Source: Candidatus Saccharimonadota bacterium
GTDB lineage: Bacteria > Patescibacteriota > Saccharimonadia > Saccharimonadales > OFTM59
Direction of reading: 5' to 3'
Assembly (NCBI GenBank): GCA_029260875.1
Contig: JAJDCL010000028.1
Coordinates: 1,161-65,160, forward strand
DNA length: 64,000 nt
Under the pieces are notes generated by a model, which saw only the letters and a list, made by a program, of their open reading frames with translations, searched no databases and had not been told where the DNA came from. The translations under genes were made by a program, and so were the position numbers. Positions 5,804-19,151 of the stretch are shown piece after piece. Every line of letters begins with the position of its first letter. Position 1 is the stretch's first letter.

Positions 5804-5943
5804 ATTTTTATTTTAGTCGAACGTGACTATAGTATAAATATCAGTAGGCTCCTTTGTCAAAAGAAGCGACAGGGCTTGCAGAAGTTAACCATTTGGGTTT
5901 AAGATACAAGTTGTTTTAACCAAAACATAAGAGGGTAGAGCTA

Positions 5944-12755: not shown

Positions 12756-12949
12756 CTAGATTTATCCTTGTGTTTTATAATGATGATGGTCGTGTGGGTA
12801 CTTTTGTCTTAATGGGCGGATTTCTACTCGCAGGCTTATACAAACCATTTTTATCCGTAGTCTTGCGGATGATAAAACCCCAAAGTCGTTTTATCTACAA
12901 AGGCCTGGCGACGGCCAACTCTTCAAATCCTAAAAAGGATGGTTTGTAT

Positions 12950-13291
12950 ATGAATTATCAAAATCCGGACGGCGTAACCGTCCACGATGGGTTCCCAAAC
13001 CCAGCCACCGACACTTCACTCCAACCTCTTGATCTAAACAGCCTGTTAATAACACACACCGCTACAACCTACTTAATGCGCCTGTCTGGAGATGAATGGC
13101 AGGCTTTAGGCATTTTTGACGGCGATATATTAATTGTTGACCGATCCGTAAATGCCCGCCCAAATGATTTAGTTGTCTGGACCAAAGCCGACCGGTTCAT
13201 CATCAGCCACGAACACCAAGTAGAGGAGGGCAGCCCCGTCTGGGGCGTAATCACCTCAACCATCCACCAGTTTAGAAAGGTGAGCAGATGA
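12950..13291 (+). CDS. UmuD-like S24-fold protein lacking the Ser/Lys dyad and the cleavage site
   Basis: It aligns by eye to E. coli UmuD from CGFPSPA onward (here DGFPNPA...LDLNSLLITH...SGDEW...DGDILIVD...). I prefer the ATG at 12950, preceded by AAAAGGA, over the track start at 12770. The stop overlaps the umuC start in ATGA. Confidence 0.7.
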   Translation: MNYQNPDGVTVHDGFPNPATDTSLQPLDLNSLLITHTATTYLMRLSGDEWQALGIFDGDILIVDRSVNARPNDLVVWTKADRFIISHEHQVEEGSPVWGVITSTIHQFRKVSR

Positions 13292-14574
13292 AGTCACCAG
13301 TTTTTGCACTTATAGACTGCAATAACTTCTTCGTTTCATGTGAGAGGCTATTCAGGCCGGACCTGGAAGGCAAACCAGTAGTGGTTATGTCGTCCGGCGA
13401 TGGCTGCGTGGTGGCGCGCAGCAACGAGGCCAAGGCGCTTGGCATTCCAATGGGCGCGCCAGTATTCAAATATCGTCATATCTTTAAAGCACAGGGCGTA
13501 GTGCAGTTCAGCGGGAACTTTGAATTGTACGGTGATATTTCTCGTCGTATTACCGATGTACTAACTTCTGTTACCCCAAAAATTGAGGTGTATTCGGTGG
13601 ATGAATCGTTTTTAGATCTTGGCGAGCTAGCCATTGATGATTACGAGGCGTGGGGCAGGACAGTGAGCGACAAAATCTGGCAATGGATCGGGGTGCCGGT
13701 ATCCGTAGGCATAGCGCCTACCAAAACTCTCGCCAAACTAGCTGCCGACCAGGTCAAAAAAGACCCCGACCTCAATAGCGTCCTGAACCTCATAAGTGTG
13801 AAAGGTTTATCCTTTCACACTTGGTTGCGGACTACGCCTATCCAGGATGTGTGGGGTGTTGGGTGGCGGTCGGCACCGAAAATGAAGGCCGAGGGGATCC
13901 ATAACGCACTGCAACTCAGCCAGTTAAGGCCACAACGTGCTCAGCAGTTGATGGGTATTCACGGCCGGCAACTAGTAGCAGAATTAAACGGCCTGAGTTG
14001 CTATCCGCTAGAGCGAGAAGAAAGGGCACAAAAAAGCATAGCCCGTACCCGCACGTTTGGCGAAGATACAAGTGAGCTTGGTTCTTTAGAGGCAGCATTG
14101 GCATCATTTACCACCAAAGCCGCCTTCCGGTTGCGCGCAGACCGTCAGCTTGCCAAGCGAGCCGGTGTGTTTGCCAGCACCAATAAGCACAAACCCGGCT
14201 ACCGGACGTGGCAACGGGAGGTGTGTTTCCCGGTTGCGACAGCTGATACGGGCAAACTTATCGGAAGTGTCATAGACTTATTTCGTGAGTTTTACAATCC
14301 GCACGTTAAGTACCACAGGGCGGGGGTCTGGTTACAAGATTTTGTATCGGCTGATTATTTGCAAACTGACGTGTTCGGGGCTGTAAATGTAGTGGAAGAA
14401 GACCGATCTAAGGCCCGTATGCAAACCCTAGATTCCATCAACGAGCGTTTCGGTCGCAGCACCATCCGCTACGCCACCGAAGATCTCGGCAACGCCTGGC
14501 AGCCCAAGCATCAGCTACGCAGCCCCCGCTATGTCACCCGCTGGAACGAACTGCCGGTTGTTCGCAGTAGCTAA
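13288..14574 (+). CDS. umuC: Y-family translesion DNA polymerase (UmuC-like)
   Basis: 428 aa with the N-terminus FALIDCNNFFVSCERLFRPDLEGKPVVV and the motif YSVDESFLD. Translationally coupled to the umuD-like gene. Confidence 0.9.
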   Translation: MKSPVFALIDCNNFFVSCERLFRPDLEGKPVVVMSSGDGCVVARSNEAKALGIPMGAPVFKYRHIFKAQGVVQFSGNFELYGDISRRITDVLTSVTPKIEVYSVDESFLDLGELAIDDYEAWGRTVSDKIWQWIGVPVSVGIAPTKTLAKLAADQVKKDPDLNSVLNLISVKGLSFHTWLRTTPIQDVWGVGWRSAPKMKAEGIHNALQLSQLRPQRAQQLMGIHGRQLVAELNGLSCYPLEREERAQKSIARTRTFGEDTSELGSLEAALASFTTKAAFRLRADRQLAKRAGVFASTNKHKPGYRTWQREVCFPVATADTGKLIGSVIDLFREFYNPHVKYHRAGVWLQDFVSADYLQTDVFGAVNVVEEDRSKARMQTLDSINERFGRSTIRYATEDLGNAWQPKHQLRSPRYVTRWNELPVVRSS

Positions 14575-14596: not shown

Positions 14597-14610
14597 TTTC
14601 CGGTCTTTAA

Positions 14611-14799
14611 GGCCCCGTCGTCTAGTGGTCCAAGATATCTGCATCTTTACCCCACAAAACAGGTTTTGCGGGGACCCCGTATCATCCAGAAGATCGCGGG
14701 TTCGGTGTACGAAGAACGGAGTGATAAGATAAGCTTGCTTAATCTTAGCGCGAGTACCGCAGGAAAGAGCGTAGCGATATCCCGCAGATTTAACAATAA
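14611..14799 (+). ncRNA. tRNA-derived structured module (Glu/Asp-like 5' half and split T-arm, no acceptor 3' strand); pseudo-tRNA or novel tRNA-like RNA
   Basis: GGCCCCG-TC-GTCT-AGTGGTCCA-AGAT-A-TCTGC-ATCTTTA occupies 14611-14649. A 24-nt hairpin follows at 14650-14673, then CCAGA-AGATC-GCGGG-TTCG at 14686-14704. A structured insert of about 75 nt follows, then CCCGC at 14781-14785. No CGGGGCC acceptor partner precedes tRNA-Glu. Confidence 0.3.
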
Positions 14800-14874
14800 G
14801 GTCCCATCGTCTAGCGGTTAGGACACCAGGTTCTCATCCTGGCAACAGGGGTTCGATTCCCCTTGGGATCACCA
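14800..14874 (+). tRNA. tRNA-Glu(CUC), CCA encoded
   Basis: Sequence is GGTCCCATCGTCTAGCGGTTAGGACACCAGGTTCTCATCCTGGCAACAGGGGTTCGATTCCCCTTGGGATCACCA. The anticodon stem is CCAGG/CCTGG, the loop is TT-CTC-AT and the T-loop is GGTTCGATTCC. Confidence 0.9.
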
Positions 14875-16375
14875 CAAGAGACTCATCTACATCAGATGGG
14901 TCTTTTTTGTTTGCTATAACAGATAACAGCGGGCTTAATTTTGCGGTTCCAAAACCGTTTTCAAAGTCATATACGATTCCATCTGGAAAAAGTAACTTTT
15001 GAATATCTTGTCGTATCTTGGTATTTGCACGGTTCCAGAATATGTCAGGTGTGGTTATGAAACTCATTGCATCATCTACGATCTGTTCTTTTTCCTTTAC
15101 GTACTGGTCGGCCTCAATTTGCTCATCCTCTAGATCATTAATCTTTTCTGCAATATTGGCGATCTGAGCCTGCTTATCCTCCTCAGTGATCTTATCCAAG
15201 ATAAACTTTTCTGTGGTAGCTTTTCTAAGTTGGCGGTAATAGTCGATCTCCTTGCTTATGCGTGCGGCGTTCTCAACAGCTTGGCCATACTCATCGTTCC
15301 ACGCTCTGAGCACGATTACCTTGTATAGCTTGGTGATACCACTGAGGGGTCTTAGGTTCTCGAGGTACTCCCTGAATAATTTATGCGTTATATCAGCATC
15401 TGCGCTGGCTTTTCTGCCAGTTACTTTCTTTTTGCAGGTAGGCTGATTGCAATGGTACATGGGGTAGTAGCTACCACTCCTGCCTCTAGACGAGCTGGCT
15501 GTAAGTGCCTTGCTGCAATTTGAGCACAGTAAGGTGCCTCTCAATGGGAACATGTCATCGCCACGAAGTACGTAGGTCTTTTTTGAGCCCTGTATCAAGT
15601 CAATGTTCTTGTAGATTACTTCCTCATCAACCAACGCCTTGTGCATGCCTCTATGGACTTTAGGGGATAGCTTATTCTTGGTATAACCCGCATAGATTAG
15701 ATTCTGGAGTATCTTTTTCAATGCATCAGTTGATTTTGGCTTACCACTCTTGGTCTGTATGCCTTGCGTAAACGCATAGCGTGCAATCTGTGCAAGTGAA
15801 AAAGTACCAGTTGAGAACTTAACGAGAACATCAGTAATCTTTGATGCGTAGACAGGATCGGCAACAACACGTGCGTTCTTTTTAGTGTAGCCAATAGGTG
15901 CCGAGTGTGGCCAGCCACCTTGCTCGACCCTTACACGCATGCCGCTCACTGTACGTATCGCACGGATCTCATTATCGAACTGTGCCGCAGCTGCAAGGAT
16001 TGCCTCAAGAAATCTGCCGACAGGATCATCATCAATAGGCTCAGTAACAGATACAATCCTCACACCATACTTAGCAAGTGCAACCTTAATACCATAGTAA
16101 TCACCTAGGTTGCGTGCCAGTCGATCAATTTTCCAGATGTATAGAATCTCAACCTGATTCTTTTTATCTTTGACGTATTGGAGTAGGTTCTGTAACTCTG
16201 GTCGATCTATGAACTTGGCCGATTCGCCTCGCTCTCTGAATATGTTTTGTTCTGGAACTAGAGTTTTCTGATCTTGTGCAAACTTTTTACACTCTTTCTC
16301 TTGAGAATCTAGGCTGGTTTTGCCATCAACTTGTTCCTTTGTGGAGACACGTGTATAGATAATTCCAACGCTCAT
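14834..16375 (-). CDS. Large serine recombinase (integrase)
   Basis: 513 aa. The N-terminal resolvase domain has IIYTRVSTKEQ (catalytic Ser) and IDRLARN. The recombinase domain has GGWPHSAPIGY. A Cys-rich zinc ribbon (LLCSNCSKAL...YHCNQPTCKKK) and a coiled-coil tail follow. The 3' end is antisense to the terminator and tRNA-Glu. Confidence 0.9.
   Translation of the reverse strand: MSVGIIYTRVSTKEQVDGKTSLDSQEKECKKFAQDQKTLVPEQNIFRERGESAKFIDRPELQNLLQYVKDKKNQVEILYIWKIDRLARNLGDYYGIKVALAKYGVRIVSVTEPIDDDPVGRFLEAILAAAAQFDNEIRAIRTVSGMRVRVEQGGWPHSAPIGYTKKNARVVADPVYASKITDVLVKFSTGTFSLAQIARYAFTQGIQTKSGKPKSTDALKKILQNLIYAGYTKNKLSPKVHRGMHKALVDEEVIYKNIDLIQGSKKTYVLRGDDMFPLRGTLLCSNCSKALTASSSRGRSGSYYPMYHCNQPTCKKKVTGRKASADADITHKLFREYLENLRPLSGITKLYKVIVLRAWNDEYGQAVENAARISKEIDYYRQLRKATTEKFILDKITEEDKQAQIANIAEKINDLEDEQIEADQYVKEKEQIVDDAMSFITTPDIFWNRANTKIRQDIQKLLFPDGIVYDFENGFGTAKLSPLLSVIANKKDPSDVDESLVVIPRGIEPLLPG
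14881..14908 (+). terminator. Intrinsic terminator of the tRNA-Glu unit; also part of the left att-like repeat
   Basis: ACTCATCT-ACATC-AGATGGGT forms 8 bp including one G.U, followed by CTTTTTT. Confidence 0.7.
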
Positions 16376-16413
16376 GGAACCAGTATATAACGAAACTGTA
16401 ACTGTTATGAAAA

Positions 16414-16572
16414 CTAATTTAGATGTTTTGGAACCGAACTACGTATTGTTTCTCTCGCAACGGATTCCAGTAACACAATCAGGCGTTCTATCTCATCATC
16501 AGAAAACTGCTTGAACTCTGTACCAAGCAGTTTTCTCGCCTCTTTAATTGTGATGATGGGATCTGGTTGCAT
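16414..16572 (-). CDS. Small ORF (52 aa) upstream of and co-oriented with the recombinase; possible directionality or DNA-binding factor
   Basis: Own translation gives MQPDPIITIKEARKLLGTEFKQFSDDEIERLIVLLESVARETIRSSVPKHLN. It is below the track's size cut-off and ends 38 nt before the recombinase start. Confidence 0.35.
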   Translation of the reverse strand: MQPDPIITIKEARKLLGTEFKQFSDDEIERLIVLLESVARETIRSSVPKHLN

Positions 16573-16743
16573 TTGTGGCTCTCGTGCGAGCCAAGAAAAA
16601 AACAGCCCGCAACTTTAATAGTTGTCTTGGCTGTTTGCCTATGCAGGAAATTATACAGCTCACAGCAAAATCCGTAAATGTTACCACGGTGTTAACAACA
16701 TAGCCTATAGGTGTTTCTACCCCCGATGTAATAGAATAAAAAG

Positions 16744-16864
16744 GTCTAAACCAACAATTGAGGCGCACCAACAGTGCGTGATTAAGCCTTGTAATGGGCA
16801 TCACGCAGGCAGTAGGGCTTAATAACTCTATTGTTGGTTTAGACACCAGCGTGGTGTCCTTTTT
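16744..16864 (+). ncRNA. Candidate sRNA of about 120 nt: closed three-way junction plus intrinsic terminator
   Basis: P1 pairs 16744-16758 with 16830-16844 (15 perfect bp). P2 is 16763-16779. P3 pairs 16781-16788 with 16816-16823. The terminator GACACCA-GCG-TGGTGTC-CTTTTT lies at 16842-16864. A TAGAAT -10 lies at 16732-16737. Confidence 0.4.
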
Positions 16865-16881
16865 AATTTGAGGAGAAAATA

Positions 16882-16986
16882 ATGGGTTTCATTAGAAACG
16901 ATTGGCATGAGCAAGGTATTGTTACCAAGATACTACTTGTTCTTGGTCTGATCATCGCAGCCATTGTTTGGCTTGCTAAAAACTGA
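16882..16986 (+). CDS. 34-aa single-TM micro-protein
   Basis: AGGAG at 16871-16875 lies 6 nt before the ATG. The product is MGFIRNDWHEQGIVTKILLVLGLIIAAIVWLAKN. Below the track's size cut-off. Confidence 0.4.
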   Translation: MGFIRNDWHEQGIVTKILLVLGLIIAAIVWLAKN

Positions 16987-17087
16987 TTGTTTTTCAGTTT
17001 TTTCAGTTACAAAAGCGGGTCTGAAAAACAATTGTTTTTCGTTTTTCCGTTTTAGAAAATCAGCTTAAAAAGTTGATTGTTTTTCAA
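16985..17087. repeat. Iteron/operator array: ATTGTTTTTC three times at exact 45-bp spacing, the middle copy within a perfect 18-bp palindrome
   Basis: ATTGTTTTTC occurs at 16986-16995, 17031-17040 and 17076-17085. GAAAAACAATTGTTTTTC occupies 17023-17040. Confidence 0.6.
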
Positions 17088-17148
17088 TTAATCAATTTTC
17101 CCACCAACTCCTTTGAATAAGATAGGCATCAGGGGTACTATATTAGTA

Positions 17149-18846
17149 ATGAAAGCAACTAAGGTAACAGTCCATAACTACCGATCGATACACGATGCCA
17201 CCTTTGATCTGGCTGACTATGCTCTGCTCATCGGATCCAACAATGCTGGCAAGAGTACATTTGCTAACGCCATCAGGGTTTTTTATGAAAAAGACGGTTT
17301 CAAGTACGATTCAAAGAAAGATTACCCATTTGATCTAGTAAAAGATGCCGAGCGTGAATCTTGGGTGGAAATATGGTTTGAGCTCGATCAAGATGAGTAC
17401 GATAACCTCGCAGAGAAGTACAAGCAAGTTGATAAGGTGTTGAAAGTTCGCAGGTATCTAGAAACCGCAACTTACAAGAACCACGAGGGCAAGGCTGGAT
17501 CTGGTCAGATTTTTGGCTACAAGACTGACGGCACCTTAGATAACGAGGCGTTTTATGGCGCAAAGAACGTTCAAAGTGGAAAGTTCGGAGAGCTGATTTT
17601 TATACCTGCCATCAGTAAGGTAGATGATCACACAAAGTTTAGCGGTGCATCTGCGTTGAGAGACCTTGTAACTGATATCCTCTCTGGTACCACTGACTTT
17701 GATGCCAACTACGGCGCATTAGAGGAAAACTTTACGACTTTCTCTAGTGCTATGCAATCCTCCAGTACCGCCGATGGCCGTTCCCTAAAGGCTGTTGAGG
17801 ACTCGCTGACTGGCATGCTAGAGGATTGGGGTATTGGGTTCAAGTTGACTTGGAAAACTCCCTCGATAGCTGAGATCATCAAGTCCATGATTAACTCCAC
17901 CTACACCGACCTAGCGCACGACAAAGAGATATTGATAACAGATGCTGGCTCTGGTTTTCAGCGACACCTTATCTACAGTGTTATCAAGACGGGTGCAGAT
18001 TTTGCTGCAAAAAAACCTAAAGCTAAAAAGACTAGCTTTGAACCAGAGCTTAGATGGATCGTATTCGAGGAACCAGAGGCTTTTCTCCATCCTCCGCAGC
18101 AAAACGAGCTTTCACGTAGCTTGCAGAAACTATCCGAGCTAGATAGTACACAGGTGTTATGCACCACTCACTCGCCGAACTTTGTAAACAAGAATATGCA
18201 GGCCATCACCAGCGTTGCTCGTGTGCAGAAAAACAAGAAAGGCTATGCTGATTTCTATCAGATTAGCGACACGACTTGGCAAGATATCACCGACAATAAC
18301 CAACTTATTAGCGCACTGCCATCAGCACCAGCGGCGCACCCTGATGATCTAGATCCTGAAATGGAGGCCATCAAGTACGCAATTTATCTGAATCCAGATC
18401 GTGCATGCATGTTCTTTGCTAAGAGAGTGCTGATTGTTGAGGGCGCAACAGAGGTTGCGTTAATAAACCACTTGATTGATATCGGTGAAATAAAGGCGAG
18501 CCTATCTGGCCTGCATGTAATTGATGCAATTGGCAAGTTCAACATCCATAGGTTTATGAAACTCCTTGAGTGTTTGGGCATTGAGCACTCCGTCTTGCAT
18601 GATGCTGATGCACCAGCAAAGACCTTACAGCAAGAGATTAATCAGCTTATCCAAGATTCCTCCAATACTTTTACGTACAAGATTGAAACGCTTGACCCTG
18701 ATCTAGAAACTTACCTAGGCCTGCCTGCGGTTGGTTCACGCCACGATCGTAAGCCACAGAGTGCGATCTATAACTACAACAACAGCAACTACGACACAGC
18801 AAAGATGGCCAGTTTCAAAACTCTGATTGAGAGCCTTGTTTCCTAG
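17149..18846 (+). CDS. OLD-family nuclease (ABC-type ATPase + C-terminal TOPRIM), stand-alone
   Basis: Motifs are Walker A GSNNAGKST, Walker B IVFEEPEAFLHP, H-loop TTHSP, and TOPRIM LIVEGATE ... HDADA. I prefer the ATG at 17149 over the track's TTG at 17113, which is in the same frame. Confidence 0.85.
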   Translation: MKATKVTVHNYRSIHDATFDLADYALLIGSNNAGKSTFANAIRVFYEKDGFKYDSKKDYPFDLVKDAERESWVEIWFELDQDEYDNLAEKYKQVDKVLKVRRYLETATYKNHEGKAGSGQIFGYKTDGTLDNEAFYGAKNVQSGKFGELIFIPAISKVDDHTKFSGASALRDLVTDILSGTTDFDANYGALEENFTTFSSAMQSSSTADGRSLKAVEDSLTGMLEDWGIGFKLTWKTPSIAEIIKSMINSTYTDLAHDKEILITDAGSGFQRHLIYSVIKTGADFAAKKPKAKKTSFEPELRWIVFEEPEAFLHPPQQNELSRSLQKLSELDSTQVLCTTHSPNFVNKNMQAITSVARVQKNKKGYADFYQISDTTWQDITDNNQLISALPSAPAAHPDDLDPEMEAIKYAIYLNPDRACMFFAKRVLIVEGATEVALINHLIDIGEIKASLSGLHVIDAIGKFNIHRFMKLLECLGIEHSVLHDADAPAKTLQQEINQLIQDSSNTFTYKIETLDPDLETYLGLPAVGSRHDRKPQSAIYNYNNSNYDTAKMASFKTLIESLVS

Positions 18847-19151
18847 CTAGCAGCTAGGTTTCCATCACTATTACTCAAACAGATACAGGAGTGAGTTGCC
18901 GCACAGCGTTAACTATCTGCCACATAGCTATTAGTTCTCGCTTGATTTGTTTCCAGTTCGCACCTATCAAGCTCACCATTTAGAAGCTCATCTACTAGAT
19001 GGGCTTTTTACATGGCTCATGCTCAACAAAACTGGCGGTTTACCGTATACTGAAGCATAAGCGCGTTTTTACACGCGATATTTCCATATGGCGGGCAATT
19101 TATGTACACACAAAAGACCAAAATTAGTACGACATCGGATGGGCTGCGTTA

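Follow-up and report, generated by a model that had tools for sequence, protein, structure and literature searches.

What is a short, evenly spaced repeat array doing directly in front of the nuclease gene of a mobile element? The question is raised by a 64,000-nucleotide stretch of DNA from a Candidatus Saccharimonadota bacterium (contig JAJDCL010000028.1; hereafter, the window), in which a small integrative element inserted at a tRNA-Glu(CTC) gene carries a gene for an OLD-family ATPase/TOPRIM nuclease, preceded by three same-strand copies of the 10-mer ATTGTTTTTC. As judged from a comparison of related loci, the array is shown to be real and to occur in this type of locus only, to be maintained by purifying selection, and to be linked to the OLD cargo and its predicted promoter. 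Our preferred reading, held tentatively and at somewhat less than even confidence, is that the three copies are sequence-specific cis-regulatory sites of the OLD promoter that would be bound by a sequence-specific factor.

The repeat array and its conservation

The array extends over positions 16978 to 17112 of the + strand as three 45-bp units and, as a first-pass annotation of the window had noted, fills the interval between a micro open reading frame (micro-ORF; 16882–16986) for 34 residues and the ATG of the OLD gene at 17149. The ATTGTTTTTC cores are found at 16986–16995, 17031–17040, and 17076–17085, with start-to-start distances of 45 and 45 nt, and a further match on the − strand (17023–17032) is the left half of an exact 18-bp palindrome, GAAAAACAATTGTTTTTC, at 17023–17040; both the spacing and the palindrome are therefore as originally described. 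These four matches are all that the 64 kb contain, compared to 0.28 expected from dinucleotide-preserving shuffles, and none of 100 shuffles harbored four or more. One of two reported partial copies, CGTTTTTCCG, stands at 17040–17049 as reported, whereas the other, GTTTTTTCAG, lies at 16997–17006, one base to the left of where it had been placed. The TCAATT-AA-TCAATT doublet is present at 17084–17097.

With up to one mismatch allowed, the 11-mer GATTGTTTTTC has two other matches in the window, which is about the chance level (1.7 expected), and a covariance model of the site found nothing beyond its seven training copies in 382 kb comprising the window and the related loci. No outside copy occurs in the 64 kb or in the ≈380 kb, which gives no support for a genome-wide dispersed repeat such as a repetitive extragenic palindromic (REP) element, an uptake sequence, or a global regulator motif. 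E. coli, phage, and plasmid collections gave no similarity, a search of the array against Rfam returned only a subthreshold chance match to a microRNA model (25 bits versus a gathering score of 79), and a literature search found nothing on such arrays. The pair pattern ATTGTTTTTC-N33-37-ATTGTTTTTC gave more than 150 matches in metagenomes and viral contigs, none of which is related to the array. The majority come from coding sequences with in-frame tandem repeats, and this accounts for an excess of matches at gap 35; among the matches listed none has DNA or protein similarity to the element. At least 120 matches of the 16-mer TTGATTGTTTTTCAAT in viral contigs are likewise chance matches, none of them related. 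A hidden small ORF was also considered and rejected: the sole ORF that overlaps the array is disrupted in a second copy of the element, and thus the array is not coding.

This second copy, L002, is 91% identical to the window over the whole element (window 14800–18979, L002 3679–7858) and is surrounded by entirely different flanking genes. It keeps all three cores, at 5865, 5910, and 5955, and their 45/45 spacing, the persistence of which is as expected at 91% identity. The full element alignment contains 376 differences, and in OLD, 135 of the 566 third codon positions are changed (24%). Against this background, the cores show 0 differences in 30 positions, the remaining array 12 in 96, the promoter region 1 in 36, and a candidate leader RNA upstream of the micro-ORF (see below) 1 in 138. 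By our own arithmetic, the chance of finding 0/30 at a 24% rate is ≈3e-4, from which it follows that the cores are most simply seen as being under selection. The perfect palindrome is not kept, since L002 reads TAAAAACGATTGTTTTTC at this position.

A more distant OLD locus, L003, in which the OLD protein is 80% identical, links the site to the predicted promoter. DNA similarity between the window and L003 starts at the site itself (window 17073, corresponding to L003 282), and L003 has a single site in which TTGATTGTTTTTCAAT is identical at 16 of 16 positions. The other conserved blocks are TTTGAATAAG, which holds the −35 box, and GGGTAnTATA, which holds the −10 box, and the distance from the end of the core to the −35 box is 27 nt in the window and 26 nt in L003. 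The region farther upstream in L003 resembles a degenerate leader followed by a decayed micro-ORF; that the site is kept despite this decay ties it to OLD and not to the peptide gene. On the evidence of L003, it is only the promoter-proximal site that has stayed at a constant distance from a core promoter conserved along with it. Among the roles offered in the first-pass annotation, an operator of the nuclease gene is the one that best fits this pattern.

The OLD gene (17149–18846, + strand) encodes a 565-residue protein with Pfam AAA_15 and OLD-like_TOPRIM domains and a PADLOC Old match at 3e-60, and we assign it to the single-gene Class 1 nucleases following the definition in PMC12392090. 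M1 and K2 of the protein are invariant in 14 aligned homologues, all of which begin at this ATG. Just downstream of the array lies a putative promoter (17113–17141, + strand), with a −35 box TTGAAT (17113–17118) and a −10 box TACTAT (17136–17141) separated by a 17-nt spacer; eight of the 12 box positions match the consensus, which is below the threshold of the promoter scan. Only 7 nt separate the putative −10 box from the ATG, and there is no Shine–Dalgarno sequence. The geometry of the two boxes and the ATG is kept in L002. Both the 17-nt spacer and the 7-nt gap are also the same in L003, where the −10 box is TAATAT-like and OLD again has no Shine–Dalgarno sequence; the more distant homologues L004 and L008 have one. 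We infer from this arrangement that the OLD mRNA is leaderless and transcribed from its own promoter, with the proximal site centered near −68. Because OLD has no Shine–Dalgarno sequence, only transcripts from its own promoter should be translated well, which would make this promoter the control point.

Beyond L003, close relatives of the window OLD are few. The host is Saccharimonadia-like, and the only such relative in the species-genome collection comes from a Candidatus Saccharimonadia metagenome-assembled genome; one further homologue (P0003, JGI 3300071358; gene at 1168–2862 of a 4,097-bp contig) is 74% identical, and a cluster look-up returned no additional close relatives. OLD genes that are 64 to 67% identical in protein (L004, L008, and L334–L337) do not have the motif. 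Three of these loci have in common an inverted repeat of another sequence, (GT)AAGTGACATGTGCGGTGGTGGCACTTA(C), upstream of OLD, at L004 2560–2615, L334 4935–4975, and L337 255–290, ≈35 to 50 nt before the ATG of OLD genes 65 to 67% identical in protein to that of the window. This repeat follows a tRNA gene in L334 and L337, and a DUF2130 gene comes after OLD in L004 and L337. The upstream element thus seems to be particular to each clade of OLD genes.

Site architecture and candidate functions

The exact 45-bp spacing has a simple origin. The 35-nt spacers that follow cores 1 and 2 are similar to one another (p=0.002), although their best alignment is gapped and they are strongly diverged; the third spacer corresponds to the promoter region and shows no relation to either. 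The homology of units 1 and 2 along their length, as read from this alignment, shows that the array arose by tandem duplication of a 45-bp unit, and this duplication is the reason for the 45/45 spacing. No structural explanation of the equal spacing is then needed, and the earlier suggestion that the phasing reflects wrapping or looping of the DNA is not supported. The duplication also permits a minimal explanation, that the promoter-proximal site alone is functional and that sites 1 and 2 are recent by-products with no role, consistent with the single copy that suffices in L003 and with the demonstrated duplication itself. We regard this as distinctly improbable: the spacers of units 1 and 2 have diverged strongly while their cores remain identical at 10 of 10 positions, which points to selection on the cores, and cores 1 and 2 together show 0 differences in 20 positions versus L002 on a background of ≈24% (a chance of ≈0.004 by our own arithmetic).

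Every copy is built around an invariant TTGTTTT closed by GA on one side and TC on the other, with flanking arms that vary from site to site but remain complementary to one another. Site 1 (16978–17002, + strand) reads AAAAACTGA/TTGTTTT/TCAGTTTTT, with 9-bp dyad arms around the 7-nt center; its core is identical in L002, and its 5′ arm takes in the end of the micro-ORF, from the penultimate sense codon through the TGA, so that this stop codon overlaps the first repeat copy. Site 2 (17023–17047, + strand), GAAAAACAA/TTGTTTT/TCGTTTTTC, harbors an A·C mismatch at −2/+2, which gives rise to the alternative perfect 18-bp palindrome at 17023–17040, while in L002 the same site is a perfect 8-bp dyad, AAAAACGA/TTGTTTT/TCGTTTTT. 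The promoter-proximal site 3 (17071–17089, + strand) reads AGTTGA/TTGTTTT/TCAATT, and the arms of the L003 copy are ATTGA and TCAAT. Scored as a 9-bp stem, 87% of cells are paired versus 75% in shuffles, none of 500 of which scored as high, and 39 to 63% in slid controls. Four arm pairs are altered on both sides, and site 2 shows the symmetric loss of one T–A pair. Of all the observations, only this maintained arm complementarity goes unexplained by a plain protein operator. A function at the level of the hairpin is the main rival to an operator.

One form of such a function would be a set of three RNA hairpins that share a UUGUUUU loop and belong to the 3′ untranslated part of the transcript made from the micro-ORF, acting as 3′-end stabilizers, as pause or termination signals, as an insulator, or as sites for an RNA-binding protein. 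In addition to the two-sided changes in the arms, the single sites fold, if weakly, as hairpins (−3.6 to −7.6 kcal/mol; z-scores from −2.2 to −3.7), the whole array folds better on the + strand (z=−3.2) than on the − strand (z=−1.2), and the stop codon of the conserved micro-ORF falls within the 5′ arm of hairpin 1. Other features of the same hairpins speak against this. Their stems are only 3 to 4 bp when the A/U tracts are left aside, whereas the clear terminators of this genome have GC-rich stems; a terminator scan reported none in the array, where the stems are A·U-rich and take in the U-tract. In the minimum-energy fold of the whole region, the core is used differently in each hairpin, and the L002 substitutions break the outer stem of hairpin 2 with no compensation. 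In L003, where the micro-ORF is decayed and the hairpin is only 5 bp, the 16-mer and its distance to the −35 box are kept nonetheless. Finally, pairing of the array RNA with the leader RNA or with the 5′ end of OLD is no better than that of shuffled sequences. On balance, we consider RNA hairpins unlikely, though worth keeping in view. An attenuator in which the left arm of the palindrome would pair alternately with cores 1, 2, and 3 was tried separately and rejected, as L002 has two mismatches in the long-range pairing.

A second possibility at the hairpin level is that the copies are nucleic-acid hairpins with identical 7-nt loops, formed in RNA or in single-stranded or extruded DNA, and serve as a sensor or decoy that couples the expression or activity of OLD to a physiological signal. 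We assign this a small likelihood; candidate signals would include phage infection, supercoiling, and incoming single-stranded DNA, and, if true, such a sensor would amount to a cis-acting module of a new type for controlling a defense nuclease in episymbiotic bacteria of the Candidate Phyla Radiation (CPR).

DNA shape offers another route to promoter control that needs no dedicated protein, in which phased A/T tracts, through curvature, an UP-like element, or cruciforms, tune the promoter by shape or supercoiling. The array region is ≈25% G+C with A5/T5 tracts roughly every 11 bp, and the predicted curvature of site 1 lies in the 99.6th to 99.95th percentile of the window when computed from wedge parameters. 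In the same prediction, however, site 2 is uncurved and site 3 is only moderately curved, and curvature does not demand an invariant 10-mer. The L003 copy is again informative, as it lacks the A5/T5 arms and has the 16-mer intact, and at 9 bp the arms are on the short side for a cruciform to be stable. We therefore lend DNA shape little credence. A match of the integration host factor (IHF) consensus WATCAANNNNTTR to the − strand of site 3 was likewise dismissed, since it is lost in L003.

In the cis-regulatory reading that we prefer, the ancestral state would have been a single site centered ≈68 nt upstream of the leaderless OLD start, as this is the arrangement conserved in L003. In the lineage of the window, a 45-bp unit carrying the site was then duplicated in tandem to give three copies in the same orientation, centered at approximately −68, −113, and −158. 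A DNA-binding protein that recognizes the invariant core (G)ATTGTTTTTC would occupy these sites and set the activity of the moderately weak promoter TTGAAT-17-TACTAT from upstream, a position typical of activators or of cooperative upstream binding. The protein is probably host-encoded, as the cargo module holds no candidate and comparison excludes the backbone proteins of the element.

A number of points weigh against this proposal. No binding protein was found, and the cargo module lacks a regulator gene. There is no sign of a regulon: a search of ≈380 kb, ≈190 kb of it Saccharimonadia-like, yielded no other copy. The motif occurs in three independent loci only, which is a thin footprint, and arms that vary but stay complementary would be expected of a hairpin more than of the half-sites bound by a protein. 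The promoter is itself a prediction that falls under the consensus-scan threshold, and the sites do not overlap the core promoter, which leaves simple repression unexplained.

Even so, the locus is a compact, conserved, and testable control region that combines a site array, a predicted promoter, and an inferred leaderless start. The control of single-gene OLD nucleases is little described, and a literature search found no published promoter or regulator maps for Saccharibacteria. Possible uses of the region include isolating the regulator from Saccharibacteria extracts and supplying a defined promoter part for the new genetic systems of this phylum.

The mobile element and its relatives

The element, together with its target, occupies 14800–18979, the 4.18-kb block shared with L002, and is a tidy example of a defense-carrying mobile element in CPR bacteria. 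The target tRNA-Glu(CTC) gene lies at 14800–14874 (+ strand). The element encodes only four proteins, which are a 513-residue large serine recombinase (14834–16375, − strand; Pfam Resolvase, Recombinase, and Zn_ribbon_recom), a 52-residue backbone protein upstream of it (16414–16572, − strand; no Pfam match), the 34-residue peptide, and OLD. The last ≈13 codons of the recombinase gene (14834–14874, − strand) are antisense to the 3′ part of the tRNA-Glu, an overlap found in all family members, and a degenerate copy of the tRNA 3′ end with a terminator stands at the right flank (≈18970–19009), where it likely marks the attachment site.

Related elements are found at five loci that represent four elements, namely L209, L210, L211, and L212/L213 (one element in two samples), with recombinase genes 68 to 72% identical in DNA. 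Orthologues of the 52-residue protein occur in L002, L209, L210, L211, and L212; they are clear in L209, L210, and L212/L213, and the L211 contig is cut after the C-terminal part of the small protein. These family proteins of 52 to 68 residues follow the pattern ...KEARKLL...SDDEVE...IAREFI..SVPK. The right-end ≈100 bp (window 18860–18978) is common to L209, L212, and L213. Cargo differs across the family and comprises OLD, a Schlafen/AlbA_2 protein (SLFN_AlbA_2), an N6_N4 methyltransferase with a ResIII helicase, a pair that looks like restriction–modification, and SHOCT with unknown proteins. By this comparison of gene content, the element belongs to a family of small (≈4–5.5 kb) tRNA-Glu-integrating elements with exchangeable defense cargo.

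This family also bears on the other roles first proposed for the array. No copy of GATTGTTTTTC, even with one mismatch, is found in L209–L213, so the 10-mer and its phasing extend to L002 among the homologous elements and are missing from these five loci. The array thus belongs to the OLD module and not to the backbone. This speaks against a conserved partnership with the recombinase or the 52-residue protein, as it does against a role as attachment site or origin; binding by either protein, as the first-pass annotation had suggested, is not supported, since L209–L213 have orthologous recombinases and, at four of the five loci, a clear orthologue of the small protein. Regularly spaced direct repeats in a mobile element would suit an iteron-type origin for the circle formed on excision, or a site at which the serine recombinase or the 52-residue protein acts as an accessory, and the AAAAAC...GTTTTT arms loosely resemble the half-sites of invertase hix/gix. 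Searches of Pfam and of the ORFs of the element revealed no initiator (Rep) gene, however, and no DnaA box (TTWTNCACA) lies within the element. The junctions of the element are at the tRNA-Glu 3′ end and near 18979, outside the array, and the palindrome is not conserved. Large serine recombinases are not known to need accessory DNA sites. We judge an origin or accessory site to be very improbable.

The micro-ORF (16882–16986, + strand) encodes the hydrophobic peptide MGFIRNDWHEQGIVTKILLVLGLIIAAIVWLAKN and is preceded by a GAGGAG ribosome-binding site. Relative to L002, all seven of its substitutions fall at codon position 3 and leave the peptide identical, and it is called as a gene in L001; by these signs it is a real gene. 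Immediately upstream of the ribosome-binding site of this first cargo gene lies the candidate structured leader or small RNA (16744–16866, + strand; fold z-score −6.2), ≈125 nt in length. Its predicted fold has an outer stem of 19 bp that encloses two hairpins, plus a hairpin of terminator type that runs into T5, and Rfam gave no match. In the separate element L209 (5535–5671, − strand), a sequence 84% identical over window 16744–16879, with five compensatory pairs, precedes a different gene (148 aa). The 16744–16866 region is a backbone feature and may be a conserved leader or small RNA of the element family.

Several other observations concern the surroundings of these elements. In L003, positions 1 to 18 resemble a tRNA 3′ end (...TTCCCCGTGCGATCACCA) and are followed by the degenerate leader and the OLD module with no recombinase between, and this locus may be an immobilized remnant of the element. 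A histidine-kinase gene is faced by the recombinase end of the element in L212/L213 and by the OLD end in the window. The coding sequence of the 52-residue protein contains an inverted repeat (16501–16536) whose 13-bp arms, AGAAAACTGCTTG/CAAGCAGTTTTCT, match perfectly across a spacer of 10 nt; L002 has two changes in it. Just upstream of the tRNA-Glu gene, a tRNA-like fragment (GGCCCCGTCGTCTAGTGGTCC... then ...ATCGCGGGTTCG; 14607–14700, + strand) is called by neither ARAGORN nor Rfam and may be a decayed or interrupted tRNA gene. Directly to the left of the insertion site, 12770–14574 harbors a UmuD-like S24 peptidase gene and a Y-family polymerase that is UmuC-like by inspection of its translation.

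Comparison with known systems

Type III toxin–antitoxin loci such as toxIN, cptIN, and tenpIN likewise have tandem repeats, some tens of nucleotides long, right in front of the gene for a harmful enzyme, and cptI of cptIN has 45-nt repeats. By analogy, the tandem 45-nt units of the array could encode an RNA that neutralizes or modulates OLD, a potentially harmful nuclease, and the array resembles toxIN and cptIN in the position and length of the repeats. There are also differences. Its units are not near-identical, with spacers 1 and 2 diverged and spacer 3 unrelated, and what lies between the repeats and the gene is a predicted promoter of OLD itself and not a terminator. OLD is an ATPase/TOPRIM DNA nuclease rather than an endoribonuclease of the ToxN/AbiQ type, and a single unit suffices in L003. 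An antitoxin-like RNA is accordingly the alternative to which we give the least weight, and it is hardly credible.

The array resembles plasmid iterons, such as those of R6K, pPS10, and P1, in having same-orientation repeats with an invariant core and a constant period, and it has the three or more direct repeats by which iterons are recognized. It departs from them in having only three copies at a period of 45 bp, compared to ≈22 bp in the plasmids. A Rep gene, DnaA boxes, and a distinct AT-rich region for unwinding are all missing, and the motif goes with the promoter of a cargo gene and is not found in the sister elements. Bidirectional intrinsic terminators share with sites 1 and 2 a short inverted repeat flanked by A5/T5 tracts. 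In contrast to such terminators, the non-A·T stem is 3 to 4 bp (−4 to −8 kcal/mol), it is the loop rather than the stem that is invariant, and site 3 and the L003 copy lack the tracts.

Promoters with several operators or with upstream activator sites correspond to our preferred reading, and precedents include Class I activator sites near −61.5 and −71.5, the three lambda OR operators, and the direct-repeat operators of the P2 C repressor. As in these systems, a short invariant sequence is repeated beside a promoter, the proximal copy keeps its distance to the −35 box and has been conserved along with both promoter boxes (−35 and −10), and the extra copies could give cooperativity. Unlike them, the array has no cognate regulator gene nearby, its sites begin clear of the promoter, 64 to 163 nt upstream, the copies share one orientation at 45-bp intervals, the arms covary in a hairpin-like manner, and no tested consensus matches.

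Like the Class 1 OLD nucleases P2 Old, Thermus scotoductus OLD, and Vibrio cholerae Vc OLD (PMC12392090, PMC6755086), the window OLD combines ATPase and TOPRIM domains in the product of a single gene and has neither a helicase nor a reverse transcriptase as partner, and like P2 old, it is borne by a mobile element. Neither an upstream repeat array nor a leaderless start is described for Class 1 OLD in PMC12392090 or PMC6755086, and the window OLD is further set apart by its residence in a Saccharibacteria-type element with a tRNA-gene target and a serine recombinase. Seen against all of these systems, the array is a new instance of a familiar and fairly ordinary kind of feature, the main uses of which are as an entry point to the regulation of OLD and to the promoter architecture of Saccharibacteria.

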